Source: Octopus vulgaris (taxonomy: Eukaryota). Taken from it: 64,000 nucleotides of DNA. The notes beneath the pieces were generated by a model. That model saw only the letters and a list, made by a program, of their open reading frames with translations, was not told where the DNA came from and searched no databases. The translations under genes were made by a program, and so were the position numbers. The DNA lies in contig OX597831.1 of NCBI GenBank assembly GCA_951406725.2, positions 33,604,001 through 33,668,000 of the forward strand. The letters are read 5' to 3'. Positions 6,597 through 57,319 of this stretch are shown piece after piece (position 1 is the first letter of the stretch; the number at the start of each line of letters is the position of its first letter).

Positions 6597-6730
6597 AGGG
6601 AGAGTTTACGAAAAAAACAAAAGACGAAGACAGGTGGTGTACAAAACAAACAGATATATTAGTATAACGCTCAGGAATAGAAAAAGTATTTTACATTTCG
6701 AGCCTACGCTCTTCTACAGAAAGGGACACA
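6597..6730 (-). mobile_element. PLE-type terminal repeat family P1 with hammerhead-like motif
   Basis: Copies at 15585-15752(+), 19361-19525(-) and 56812-57010(-). All carry CTGTNGAAGAGCGTAGGCTC(G)AAA and abut dinucleotide repeats. Confidence 0.65.
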
Positions 6731-9111
6731 TATATATACACACACATAGATGTGTGTATGTGTGTGCGTGCGTAAGTGCGCGTGATGTCACGTAGTCTTG
6801 TCCAAAATGGAGACGGATTAGTAGCATTTTTAAGTGGTGCGCTTGATAATTCTGATGTTTCCACTTGAAACCAATATATGAATAAAAGAATATATATATA
6901 TTCTATTATTCTTTCACTCACACCTTTATATACATATACACATATATATCTATACACACATATTTGTACACATACACACACACATATATATATATATATA
7001 CATACATAAAACATGCTCTCACATACAAATATATAATTATATAATATATACATATAAGTATGTTTGTATGTCTATCTGTCTGTCTGTCTGTCTGTCTATC
7101 TATCTATCTATCTATCTATCTATCTATCTATCTATCTATCTATCTATCTATCTATCTATCTATCTATCTAGCTAGCTAGCTAGCTATACGTGCACACGCA
7201 CACTAATTACTGCCCGCAAAGCTTTAATAAAGGCCGAGTATATTGTAGAAATCACGTGCTGCAATGACACGCAGCTGAAGTCAAACACGAAACTACGTCG
7301 CTATTAAGACGGCCTCTGAACCAAACAGCCATGCTGTGCGGTTCTCTGACAAAATTTGAAAAATATTTATATATAAAAAACTGTTAATAGGAACTATTTT
7401 TTAAATTAACGAAAATAGGGTGGGGGAAGAAAGTGAAGAATATTATCAATTCTGGAATGTTTCAATTCCATATGCGATTGGTATCCGTGTAGAAGATGTG
7501 TACGCGCGTTTGTTTGTTTGGGTGTGTGTCAGTGTAAGCGTGTATGTGTGTGTGTGTGTGTGTGTGTGTGTGTGTGTGTGGGTGTGTGTGTACGCTTGCG
7601 AGTGTTTGTGTGCATACATATACATATATACATGTATACATAATTGAATTTTTGCATAGAAATGAATATATACAAATAAATACATAGACACACACATAAT
7701 ATTTATAAGCGTGGGTATATAAATTGCTATATATGCTTATATATATATATATATATATATATATGCGAGTGTGTGTATGTATGCATATATATGTATATAT
7801 ATATATATATATATATATATATATATATATATATATATATATATATATAGTGTATATATGCATAAATATATGTATATACATATGTGTATGTATGCATGTG
7901 TGAGAGTATATGGTTATTAATAGTTTAATGGTATACATTATATGTATTTGTCTAATAATGTATTAAAATCAGACATTTTGATGAAAAAAAATTATCTCTA
8001 CAATCCGTATTAAATATTTTTCTCAAGTTTGAATGCTTAAATGCATGATATGGATATAAGCATCTATGTGACTTTGTTTCATTTTCATTCTTGTATGTAT
8101 TTAAACATGCAGATGTATACTTTCACATGCACACAAACACACACAAACTCACACTTCGATACAAAGATATATATATATATATATATATATATATATAATA
8201 ACAATATAATAAATAAATAAAATATATGCATATATACATACATATATGTACATACTTACATCTATATGTATATATACAAGATATATATATATATATATAT
8301 ATATATATATATATATGAGTACAGGACACCACAAATAAACGTAGAACACAACGAGAAACGAAAACATAAAATCAAACAAGGAAACGGACATTTTTTTAAC
8401 AACAAAAAAACAGAGTACAGGACAAACAATACAAGGAAAATTCCCCTTCATCAGCTGCCCCTGGTTCGACTCAGTGCGTATATATATATATATATATATA
8501 TATATATATACCTACATACGCTTATAAATAAATATATATATACATATATATACACATAGATATATATATATACATTCTTACGTATAAAAATGAATGCTTA
8601 TATGTATATGTAAATGTATGTAAATGTACATATATATATATATATATATATATATATATATATATATATTAATATGTTTGTATCTAGGTGTAAGTTTCTG
8701 TGAGTATACATGTACATGCATAAATTCATACAAGAATGAAATAGTCATATAGCCAGACTTTTATATATATATATATATATATATATATATATACACGACG
8801 TGTTTCTTTCAGTTTCCGTCTACCAAATCCACTTACAAGGCTTTGGTCGACCGGAGAATATAGTAGAAGTCACTTGTCCAAAGTATCAAACAGTGAGACT
8901 GAATCCGGAACCATGTGGTTGGGAAGCCAAACCACACACATACATATATTTATACATTCATACATACATACACACACACACACACACATATGTATATATG
9001 TATGTATACATATAGAAACATATACATATATATACATATAAAGGCAATATAGTTTTATGTTTGCAGATAAATACGCACGTGTAGACATACGCATATGTGT
9101 ATATATATATA

Positions 9112-9471
9112 GACATCTAGTGGGGACTTTTGGAATAATCGTTACTCAATACCACGGTAGAGATGAATATTTATATTTTGATCGAGCCAGTCTCTTGTTG
9201 CTATGGAGCGTCTCCTATGTGTTCACAGGAGATCCCCGCCCCATAGAGAGAAACATATATGTATGTAAACATGTCTGTGTATATATATATATATATATAT
9301 ATATATATATATATATATATATACATATGTTTGTGTTTGTGTATGTGTTGTTCCTGTGAACACACAGGTGCCTCTCCAGAGGGACAAGTGTTTGGCTCGA
9401 CCAAAATAAAAAAATATTATCTCTACCGTGGTACTGAGTAACGATTATTCCAACAGTCCCCACGAGATGTC
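9112..9471. repeat. Diverged inverted pair of a ~120-bp repeat around a (TA)n tract
   Basis: 9112-9231 is the reverse complement, with substitutions, of 9352-9471. Confidence 0.8.
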
Positions 9472-10923
9472 CATATATACATATATGCGTGTATATATAT
9501 ATATATATATATATATATATATATATATATATATGTGTGTGTGTGTGTGTGTGTGTACGTGCGTGCCTGTGTGCGTATGTGTGTGCGTTTTTATACATAC
9601 ACACATACACACACACACAAACACAAAGATATATAAGCGTCTGAATATGTGAGTGGAGTTTGTGTTTCAATCGTGTATACATTTATATATGTACATCTAT
9701 ATATACATATATATATATATATATGTATGCATATATATATATATATATATATATATATATATATATATATGTATGTATATGCATATACGTATATTTATTC
9801 ATACACACGCACATAAACACATAGACACAGACATATGTATACATACATTAATACGACGGGCTTCTTTCAGTTTCCGTCAACCAAATCCACTCATCGACCC
9901 GAGGCTATAGTAGAAGACACTTACCCAATGTGTCACGCAATGCCACTGAACCCAGAACCATGTGTTTGGGAAGCGAGCCTCTTGCCGCCTTCGCGTATGT
10001 ATGTATCAGGTCACCACATACATATATACATACATACATACATATATATATATATATATATATATATATATATATATATAGAGAGAGAGAGAGAGAGAGA
10101 GAGATTAGAGAGATTTTTTGATTGCCCATCTTCAATTCATTGCAGGACGAAGGCCTCAGTAGATTCCCTCACCCAATCACTGTACAATGTGGAGGCCGGG
10201 AATTCTAGGTTGAGATCATACTGGTTTGATGAGCCAGCTCCGTCACGCTGGCTCGGCATCACTTGGCAGAGGCGTGCAGTTTTTATACACAAACTCAGGA
10301 ATGGTTCAGTCGGTTACATTTATCCCGGTGCTCAACTGGTACTTATTTTATCGACCTCAAAAGGAGGAAAGGCGAAGCTGACCTCGGTGGAATTTGAACT
10401 CAGAACGTAAAGGCAGGCGAAATGCCGCTAAATATTTTACCCTGCGTGCTAACGATTCTACCAGCTCGCCCCGCTCCCACTCACAGATATAATGATATAG
10501 AATTGTAGATCCAAAAGATCTAGGTGTAAGAATTTAGTAAGCTTCGAGAAGTCTTTCAGGAACTATAACAGTGTATTGACGGAGATGACCACAGGTTTTT
10601 ACCATATCAAAGTTCGATAAGCTTAAAAAAGATTTTTATAGTTCACGGCTACCAACTAGAGTTGCTATGAATGCGAATAAAACTCCAAATTGAGGGAATG
10701 GAACTGGTAAAATCCAGGTTACATATGTTTTCTTGTTAACAGAACCCCTGAATTAATAATACCTCAACGAGGAGTACCCCACTACCTGCTCATCAACCCG
10801 TAGTTAAATGAAAGTCACATTGTCGTCAAGGAAATCCATATTAACTCGCCGGAGATGTAATTAAAAATTAGTGAAGTTAACATGGGATCCCAGATGACAA
10901 TATAACCTTCATTTAACTAAGGT

Positions 10924-11012
10924 GTCTTCGCCTGATGAATAGCTAGTAAAGTACCGCTCCTTGAGTAATTATTACTTCCGAGGTCTTGGTAGTTTGGAAA
11001 CATATGTAGCCT
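10924..11012 (+). ncRNA. Degenerate hammerhead-like motif with long stem II
   Basis: CTGATGA 10932-10938, GAAA 10997-11000, palindromic ACATATGT stem III, then A17. Stems I and II are weak. Confidence 0.4.
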
Positions 11013-55507: not shown

Positions 55508-56329
55508 TAATTCGAACCCAGAACGTAAAGGCGTACGAAATGCGGTTAAGCATTTTATCCGGCGTGCTAAAGATTCTCCCAACTCATTAAAATAATAAAC
55601 ACTTGTATTGTGCTAGTGTTGATTCAATCACTAATCCTTTCTGGCATTTTTTGGAAGCTTCGCGACTAGTACATGGCTCGTACACTATTTTATCGACCTC
55701 GAAAGATTGAAAAGCAAAATCGACCTCGGTGGAATTTGAACTCAGAACAGTACACACAATATCTTCATTCTACACAACATTAACAATATTGGTTACTGTG
55801 CGACGTCTTATAGTAATAATAATGATGATGATGATGATGATGATGATAATAATAATAATAATAATAATAATAATAATAATAATAATAATAATAATAATAA
55901 AAATAATAATAATAATAATAATAATAATAATAATAATACATTACGCTATGTTCGAACTATCTTCTAATTTGACGAATCAGTATTTTCCTGTATTTTGACG
56001 GTTAAGATATTTTTTTACACATATATATATATATATATATATATATATATTTTCTATTTATTTTAAGTATGTCTGAGTAATATTCTTTAAATTATATGTC
56101 ACCTTATTGGCTTCTGATTTGCTCCATATCCTGAAGGAGAGATAGAACTGGTTCAGTTTAATTCTCTAATACATGATGAAGACTTTTAAAAGAGAATGAA
56201 TCTAGCTAAATTTCGTTATTGTGGTAAATGCATTAACATTTCTTAGCGGCAAAAGAAAGAAGTTAAAGAACGACAGTATAATAAATACAAAAGTAAATGC
56301 TTATTAAATAATAATAAGTACAGAAGTAA

Positions 56330-56459
56330 ATTACTTTCGAGGCAGTACTTCTTGATACACCAAGCATTTCGGGTGTATTCGTTACGCTAGCGCCTGCTAT
56401 ACAGGCACCGACAATTTGACCTCTTTGAAAGTCCGATAGATCTGTGATTTTAATGAATT
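56330..56459 (-). mobile_element. Tc1-like 5' fragment (same family as 13228 and 59393)
   Basis: TDLSDFQRGQIVGACIAGASVTNTPEMLGVSRSTASKV; matches 60268-60398. Confidence 0.85.
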
Positions 56460-56668
56460 CCGAAGAAGATACAAAAACAACCTTTCGTGATTTCATCACC
56501 TCTTGCTCTCCGGAATTCTTCGCTGCTGGCATAAAGCAGCTACCGATAAAACGGTAAAATTGTGTTGATAATTTAGGTGTAATCTTTGATTAATTCCATT
56601 GCTTTTTGTTGAGAAAAAGTAAAATAAATTTCCAGTTCAAAATCAGACATTTCATTTTGATGACCTGA
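56453..56668 (+). mobile_element. Mariner 3' fragment (third mariner family) with right TIR
   Basis: SEEDTKTTFRDFITSCSPEFFAAGIKQLPIKR*NCVDNLGVIFD*, then AAATCAGACATTTCATTTTGATGACCTGA. Confidence 0.75.
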
Positions 56669-57319
56669 CATACATACATACATACATACATACATACATA
56701 CATACATACATACATACATACATACATACATACATACACACACGCACGACACACACACACACACACAAACACACACACACACACACACACACACACACAC
56801 ACACACACATAGTGAGAATTAATAAAAAAAAAAACAAAAAGCGAAGACGAGTGTGTAAACAACAAACAGATGTATTAGTTTAACGCTCGGAAAGTGAGAA
56901 AGTCGTTTACGTTTCGAGCCTACGCTCTTCGACAGAAAGGAACACAGAAATAAACAGAGAGAGAAAAATAAAAAAAAGGTTTAGTGGTGGCTAGCGATCT
57001 ATCATGGCGGTCGTCAGTTTGTTTGAAGAAGAAAAATAGAACTAGTAAAATTTTTGGTCATGGTATCAAGTCAAAATGTAGCTAACAAAAGAAAAAAAAA
57101 AAGGTTTAATGAATTTATATTATTAAAGTCATTTATTGTTGTCGGTATAACTGAATAAAGCTTTATAAAGTGTACATATCGCCCGTCACTCTTGTTAAAG
57201 ATAAGATTATTAGCCTCCAACGTGTATTCGGCTGAAAATAAGAACAGGTATAAGCGTTGCAAAGCATTTTGTTCGACGCTCTAACAATTCTGGCAGCTTG
57301 CTATCTCAATATGTTGTTG

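Follow-up and report, generated by a model that had tools for sequence, protein, structure and literature searches.

Hammerhead motifs in the window

The window analyzed here is a 64,000-nucleotide stretch of the Octopus vulgaris genome (contig OX597831.1 of GenBank assembly GCA_951406725.2, positions 33,604,001 to 33,668,000 of the forward strand), taken from a 2.8-Gb genome that is rich in microsatellites and transposon remnants. It holds nine copies of the hammerhead motif, which belong to four repeat families and are associated with remnants of Penelope-like elements (PLEs). The families are named here by their cores or stems, and comprise a G3-C8 family, a U3-A8 family, a family called P1 that carries U6, and a family with a long stem II. 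It is likely, as judged from sequence and structure, that the motifs are type-I hammerheads located in the pseudo-long terminal repeats (pLTRs) of four distantly related PLE families, and that they act in the parent elements as slow, assisted self-cleaving ribozymes. The features that bear on this reading are listed in Table 1.

Table 1. Hammerhead motifs and associated PLE remnants in the window
Feature	Position	Strand	Remarks
P1 motif, core CUGUAGA (U6)	6688-6723	-	stem III AUGU
Old inverted-repeat insertion of a PLE 3' repeat, long-stem-II family	10684-11041		arms 69% alike
More decayed hammerhead copy, other arm	10717-10796	-	inverted relative of the 10932 copy
Decayed hammerhead, core CUGAUGA	10929-11011	+	CTGATGA at 10932; 58-nt stem II region, GAA, ACAUAUGU, A17
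P1 motif, core CUGUUGA (U6)	15618-15653	+	G12 changed to U
Hammerhead motif, core UUGACAA (U3-A8)	16759-16801	-	stems of 6 and 5 bp
End of GIY-YIG endonuclease frame, U3-A8 PLE	17019-17270	-	76% identity to L040 frame
Upstream piece of U3-A8 PLE frame, inverted	17787-18011	+	79% identity to L040 frame
P1 motif, core CUGUAGA (U6)	19453-19488	-	stem III AUGU
Palindromic insertion, 3' repeat (pLTR) of G3-C8 PLE	47331-47702		two inverted arms; between (TA)n tracts
Second, identical G3-C8 hammerhead motif, other arm	47505-47554	-	core at 47547
Type-I hammerhead motif, core GUGAACA (G3-C8)	47571-47620	+	GTGAACA at 47578
P1 motif, core CUGUCGA (U6)	56904-56939	-	stem III ACGU; stem I 2 bp (weakened)

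A preliminary description of the window had proposed that four cores (CTGATGA, GTGAACA, TTGACAA, and CTGTNGA) share the same minimal fold with a palindromic stem III. All four cores are present where it placed them and they are distinct, but two of the four variants have the canonical C3-G8 pair, such that only two non-canonical 3-8 pairs occur. The minimal fold does not extend to the 10932 motif, which has a 58-nt stem II region and a stem I of only 2 bp; stem II is long in its family as well, where stem I is only 3 bp. A bulge between positions 9 and 10.1 and a short palindromic stem III (AAUAUU, AUAU, ACGU, or ACAUAUGU) are found in all four families, and the two P1 copies that read AUGU in place of the family ACGU likely reflect CpG decay.

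In the majority sequences of the families, stems I and II and the A15.1-U16.1 pair form a three-way junction that opens at stem I, which is the type-I arrangement. These majorities also keep G5, A9, G12, A13, A14, the A15.1-U16.1 pair, a nucleotide other than G at position 17, and a Watson–Crick pair between positions 3 and 8. This set is broken in the single window copies at 15618 and 16759. In the latter, the window reads AGAATATC where the family reads TGAAATATC, and thus the G12-A13-A14-A15.1 run is interrupted (a damaged GAAA box), whereas the majority columns of the family are intact in 34 to 38 of 38 copies. The canonical A6 and U4 are present in three of the window families, and A6 is replaced in P1. 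Only the two G3-C8 copies are fully intact, and most of the window copies are decayed.

With positions 3, 6, 7, and 8 left free, a loose descriptor finds eight matches in the window, of which six are Watson–Crick at 3-8. Block-wise dinucleotide shuffles of the window give a mean of 2.8 matches (0.77 Watson–Crick), and none of 60 such shuffles reaches either seven matches or five Watson–Crick matches. A strict descriptor finds zero matches in the window because it leaves no room for the bulge that separates A9 from stem II. No hammerhead is among the 150 of 579 Rfam matches listed for the window, all of which are microsatellite-driven microRNA matches below the gathering score.

Each motif is a member of a repeat family whose size ranges from at least about 600 to more than 12,000 copies. 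A first look at the genome gave 2,288 candidates for the G3-C8 motif and 1,615, 1,332, and 999 for the other three, with only the best 40 scored per family. For G3-C8, the best 40 of the 2,288 candidates are 94 to 100% identical to the window insertion, the exact pattern has 589 matches in the genome, and every core column is kept in 65 to 68 of 68 copies. The motif consists of a 7-bp stem I, a 5-bp stem II (GUCGC/GCGAC), a G bulge, GAA, AAUAUU, and U17, and its two window copies sit in opposite arms of a 279-bp palindrome. An older subfamily, found also in two other organisms, shares this core but differs in loop II.

Linkage to Penelope-like elements

The preliminary description had suspected an association with PLE reading frames, and such linkage was found for all four families, in that longer copies have the motif in sense orientation after a reverse transcriptase (RT) and GIY-YIG endonuclease frame. 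The combination of a telomerase-like RT with a C-terminal GIY-YIG domain in a single frame, which distinguishes PLEs, was recognized by RT motifs, the PF01541 domain, and atlas comparison. Frames with RT motifs include those of 781 aa (L337), 487 aa (L335), and 833 aa (L341, with the endonuclease in a second frame; L numbers denote sampled loci). The frames of the four families are only 22 to 33% identical to one another and therefore represent distant PLE lineages. From sequence motifs, and with comparison limited to pairwise identities, we provisionally take P1 and the U3-A8 families to be Neptune-like, G3-C8 to be Nematis-like, and the long-stem family to be Hydra-like.

The G3-C8 motif is positioned about 1 to 1.1 kb downstream of the 487-aa frame with RT and GIY-YIG (L335, L336, L195, L324), and the atlas neighbors of this frame carry HTH_animal, GIY-YIG, or RVT_1 in 12 to 93% of their members. 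The U3-A8 motif follows a GIY-YIG frame both in the window and in longer copies, with RT motifs farther upstream (GIY-YIG in L040, PF01541 match with E 4.8e-5; RT motifs in L338). In the window itself, the end of the endonuclease frame lies about 220 nt upstream of the motif, and this fragment alone has no Pfam match. An unrelated retroelement fragment (17336-17780), which is presumably RTE-like, separates the two inverted pieces of the U3-A8 frame. A further U3-A8 family has its motif after the 781-aa frame in 12 of 30 GIY-YIG loci. For P1, the motif was found on the sense strand after the RT frame in 20 of the 30 loci that were retrieved with that frame (16 by the strict descriptor). Linkage is weakest for the long-stem family, whose frame is decayed. 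In this case, one copy (C5:3935852) runs at 74% identity without a break from an endonuclease remnant to the motif, the RT remnant matches the P1 RT (E 4e-5), and a single atlas match has GIY-YIG in 42% of its members.

Two other types of mobile element were considered and rejected. Non-LTR (long terminal repeat) retrozymes are made of tandem 150- to 400-nt repeats that each carry a hammerhead, whereas the octopus copies are solo or in inverted pairs, and the motif is absent from the 150 of 215 tandem arrays listed. A miniature inverted-repeat transposable element (MITE) or foldback DNA transposon, which would have terminal inverted repeats of equal length around an invariant interior, was also rejected, in that the G3-C8 hairpin insertions have arms that are unequal by about 60 nt (in the window, the left arm has the extra tail) and a center that varies by copy, and the same sequence ends an RT frame.

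Several additional observations were made on G3-C8 copies. Large inverted pairs, in which 5'-truncated copies meet head to head, are frequent among these elements (L313-L316, L335, L336), and a microsatellite-rich 3' region of about 1 kb is common to the copies. Short copies have a sharp 5' boundary, wherein 32 of 75 rows (L301-L330, L001-L030) end 14 to 15 nt before stem I and only 4 of 75 end 16 to 119 nt before it, in a sample that is biased by the choice of loci by pattern and by hairpin query. Copies that start at AGATGC (window 47559) are preceded by G in 14 of 17 cases, whereas long copies have T. A boundary of this kind, with an extra G, would be consistent with copies that begin at a transcription start and include a copy of the cap G. 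The sequence upstream of the boundary (CTAAC, pyrimidines, then TAG) resembles a 3' splice site. At L009 (1851-3083, + strand), a 411-aa frame that we take to resemble innexin follows a G3-C8 hairpin insertion at a distance of about 70 nt.

Complementarity of positions 3 and 8

A census of the genome was conducted on 120 stretches of 10 kb taken at fixed steps (1.2 Mb in total), with positions 3, 6, 7, and 8 free. Among the matches, 46 of 54 are Watson–Crick at 3-8, compared with 20 of 74 in 10 shuffles, each of which yields 4 to 11 matches. Matches within a family are not independent, and therefore counting was done by family over all sampled loci. By this measure, positions 3 and 8 pair in 17 of 17 families (11 C-G, 5 U-A, and 1 G-C), five of which were targeted by the search and not found blind, a circumstance that lessens the force of the count, versus 6 of 14 single-copy matches. 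No mismatched 3-8 pair exists among these 17 families. Two clusters were left out, namely L234 (a microsatellite whose column majorities do not form a hammerhead core) and one cluster with C6 (from the overlapping loci L329 and L330). Because the palindrome was built into the descriptor, its presence in the census families is not independent evidence. When all seven core letters were freed, 3-8 pairing was present in 10 of 10 families whose core reads Y-G-N-N-N-A, compared with 5 of 15 other repeat scaffolds (p=0.001).

The complementarity is thus more common than chance, and the earlier proposal that a non-canonical set of motifs is under selection for the 3-8 pair is supported by the family counts. 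One limit applies. The five U3-A8 families may share an origin, and in that event only two independent swaps would have taken place, with a chance of about 0.06 that both are complementary. That the members of this diversified set are ribozymes is suggested by their structure. One of the U3-A8 families (L139, L211, L213, L230, L242, L263) was noted to have a free N7 (T, A, or C), a stem II of GGGG/CCCC or AGGG/CCCT, and a stem III of ACGCGT or ACATGT.

We also considered that the motifs are chance folds in AT-rich repeats or MITE-like hairpins unrelated to hammerheads, an idea that we find scarcely credible. It would draw on the 15 repeat scaffolds that loose descriptors match without a hammerhead core, on the 4 to 11 matches in each shuffled sample, and on the resemblance of the G3-C8 insertion to a hairpin element. 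However, all four families have the motif at the usual place after a PLE frame, and the variable hairpin center and unequal arms fit tailed, inverted PLE insertions rather than a MITE. The PLE linkage together with the 3-8 pairing counts refutes this explanation.

Changes of the uridine turn in the P1 lineage

P1 is distinguished by U6, which is present in 12,412 exact matches to the family pattern, whereas only 385 matches have another base at this position. A hand count of the first 100 of these 385 gave about 62 C, 26 A, and 12 G, and this spread of bases fits decay after insertion, as expected. Eight of the same 100 matches share one A6-G7-U17 form, which is perhaps a small sublineage that reverted to A6. 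The 27 copies in the 1.2-Mb sample extrapolate to about 63,000 in the genome.

By their flanking sequences, P1 copies divide into four subfamilies, and U6 is fixed in all four. Among their majority sequences, differences occur in 38 of 114 flank columns, compared with 0 of 34 columns of core, stems, bulge, and loop (p=1e-5), a count that leaves out 17 of 100 lineage rows that could not be assigned to a subfamily. When only columns outside the collection anchor are considered, 0 of 14 differ (p=0.01). The motif itself varies among subfamilies at two positions only, N7 (with all four bases) and H17 (with A or U). In contigs of four sequencing runs, presumably of RNA, from four organisms, variation in at least 10% is confined to N7 within positions 3 to 9. 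Because the flanks turned over while the motif changed only at N7 and H17, the comparison indicates that the hammerhead fold is under selection even with U6.

These data bear on the possibility that the motifs are neutral passengers, each a decaying remnant of an inherited ancestral hammerhead, with core variants that began as founder mutations and were amplified with the element. Single genomic copies indeed decay freely, one founder change can reach thousands of copies, and the U3-A8 families could have a common origin. On the other hand, the turnover in P1 that altered a third of the flank columns left all 34 constrained motif columns unchanged, no family has a mismatched 3-8 pair, and the older G3-C8 subfamily has an identical core in spite of a different loop II. 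We therefore regard neutral passage as very improbable overall, and for the U6 lineage it is already largely refuted.

Two sister lineages of P1 retain its stem II, have a replaced loop II, and carry a swapped stem I pair (G-C in place of C-G). Both have A6. It is combined with U4 in one of them, and in the other, C4 is present in 72 of the first 100 of 7,718 exact C4/U4 matches (hand count). This C4 lineage, which has the core CCGACGA, was noted in L296, L276, L277, and others. In addition, an unrelated family with the core CCGATGA (L185, L292, L035) has C4 in 6 of 10 copies. Positions 4 and 6, which are the ones changed in the sister lineages, both belong to the uridine turn.

A model for slow, assisted cleavage

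We propose that the window motifs were left behind as short truncated or inverted PLE insertions, and that the hammerheads of the parent elements cleave slowly, needing either paired copies or the protein of the element. A palindromic stem III of 4 to 8 nt would close poorly in one molecule, and because of this two RNAs would pair there. G3-C8 and U3-A8 would be compensated swaps that hold the 2'-OH of a G8-type nucleotide in place, and U6 and C4 would reduce the rate without abolishing function. If the element is copied mainly from uncut RNA, then this would be the reason why whole motifs are present in genomic DNA. An uncut template would also fit the two 3' ends that are separated by about 60 nt. 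No activity is predicted for the copies in the window, which are either decayed or locked in a long hairpin. Indeed, the whole 47331-47702 insertion folds by minimum-energy prediction into one hairpin of -252 kcal/mol, which would hide the motif. The same method forms stems I and II for G3-C8 and U3-A8.

Precedents for such behavior exist. PLE hammerheads cleave weakly and as dimers (PMC4209133). The hammerhead of the Anolis PLE Poseidon, reconstituted in vitro, cleaves only with protein (Frangieh et al. 2024, PMC11167929). In the same system, the C3G/G8C double change partly rescues cleavage, and the insertion template is uncut RNA.

Several results weigh against this model. Minimum-energy folding gives alternative folds for P1 and for the long-stem copy, and two-copy folding alone yields no hammerhead dimer for most motifs. 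A recognizable motif within 1.6 kb downstream was found for only 2 of 11 endonuclease ends in a systematic sample, which comprises old, decayed copies, and Pfam returned no match for the G3-C8 frame or for the long-stem frame. Changes of A6 are also costly, as a natural A6C hammerhead cleaves at less than 0.1 per min (PMC3088659), and an A6C mutant is more than 10,000-fold slower in Mg2+ than in Mn2+ (PMC7151607). Because A6 changes so strongly lower activity, the U6 families may not cut, and U6 is the doubtful case.

It is therefore worth weighing the idea that G3-C8 and U3-A8 are working ribozymes, and that the U6 (and C4) lineage lost cleavage and kept its fold as an RNA dimerization or protein-binding signal. 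This would accord with the fixation of U6 in its exact copies and in four subfamilies, and with the alteration of position 4 or 6 of the uridine turn in sister lineages. Insertion in vitro does not depend on cleavage (PMC11167929), and Naiad PLEs are successful even though they lack canonical hammerheads (PMC8557442). Yet this lineage keeps G12, G8, the 3-8 pair, and a cut-site base other than G (subfamily majorities have A or U), and such catalytic requirements need not bind a purely structural element. We judge the loss of cleavage to be unlikely, and hold to the model of slow, assisted ribozymes.

Relation to known hammerheads

Much of what is described above is already published for PLEs. 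The metazoan minimal hammerhead ribozymes (Cervera and De la Pena 2014, PMC4209133) share with the octopus motifs a type-I topology in pLTRs, the 9/10.1 bulge, a palindromic 15.2-16.2 or loop 3, a natural U3-A8 family, and the presence of many families per genome, mostly as solo truncated copies with inverted pairs 100 to 700 bp apart. The text of Fig. S3 of that paper has CUGANGA as its consensus and contains no G3-C8, U6, or C4 motif and no cephalopod row. Variants of Lunse, Weinberg, and Breaker, as related in a review (PMC6765202), likewise have a short palindromic stem III, cleavage as dimers, and PLE association. With Anolis Poseidon (PMC11167929), the octopus elements share the pLTR location of the hammerhead, a tail between two 3' ends, and probably the uncut-RNA template. 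The G3-C8 pair is an engineered partial rescue in Poseidon, whereas a young family carries it naturally here. From the Neptune, Nematis, and Hydra clades (PMC8557442), an RT followed by a Cys-rich linker and GIY-YIG is known, as are (TA)n or similar microsatellite targets and tandem or inverted insertions with a one-sided tail.

Natural U3-A8 covariation and a natural position-6 change (A6C) were already in Perreault et al. 2011 (PMC3088659) and the phage Bcep176 example (PMC7151607). The change to C occurs in that single phage, in contrast to the U of a subfamily-conserved lineage of tens of thousands of copies here. Natural PLE families with G3-C8, U6, or C4 are unreported in the literature text searched, which did not cover figures or Lunse et al. 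2017, the source likeliest to list them. Nor did a literature search combining Octopus, hammerhead, and Penelope find any report. In the supplement text of PMC8557442, the P1 motif was not found, and GTGAACA occurs at 30 places, the two examined of which are both unrelated.

Other repeats in the window

The window also contains repeats of other types. A retroelement remnant in (AAT)n at 2703-4019 (- strand), with a 304-bp tandem duplication at 2200-2816, has no clear Pfam match, and we take it to be a non-LTR retrotransposon with a restriction-like endonuclease motif. Tc1/mariner transposase remnants (PF01359, PF13358) are located at 13230-14349 (+), 44662-45129 (-), 56263-56589 (-), and 59422-61727 (-), and those at 13230-14349 and 59422-60567 are inverted relatives (77%). 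Two families that resemble short interspersed elements have many window copies, the first at 12052-12283, 34693-34943, 51014-51438, and 57387-57625, and the second at 19779-20260, 33255-33615, 35909-36306, and 50457-50860.

Implications for PLE hammerheads

The role of the hammerhead in PLEs is still puzzling, given that it cuts weakly, is dispensable for insertion in vitro, and is absent from some successful clades (PMC4209133, PMC11167929, PMC8557442). One genome provides a natural allelic series, with A6, U6, or C4 on the same stems in sister lineages, and adds G3-C8 and U3-A8 families with intact frames. The role of the PLE hammerhead is therefore directly testable. A descriptor that requires CUGANGA overlooks the motifs that are most numerous in a genome of this kind.

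We tentatively suggest a broader interpretation, which is possible though somewhat doubtful at present, that the most abundant lineage has been released at uridine-turn positions 4 and 6 but is still under selection for its fold, for 3-8 pairing, and for the bases allowed at the cut site. Beside it would stand a young and recently active element with a natural G3-C8 ribozyme. If this is true, the released positions would mean either a hammerhead that is assisted by protein or switched by metal, or one that no longer cuts and serves as a packaging or dimer signal.

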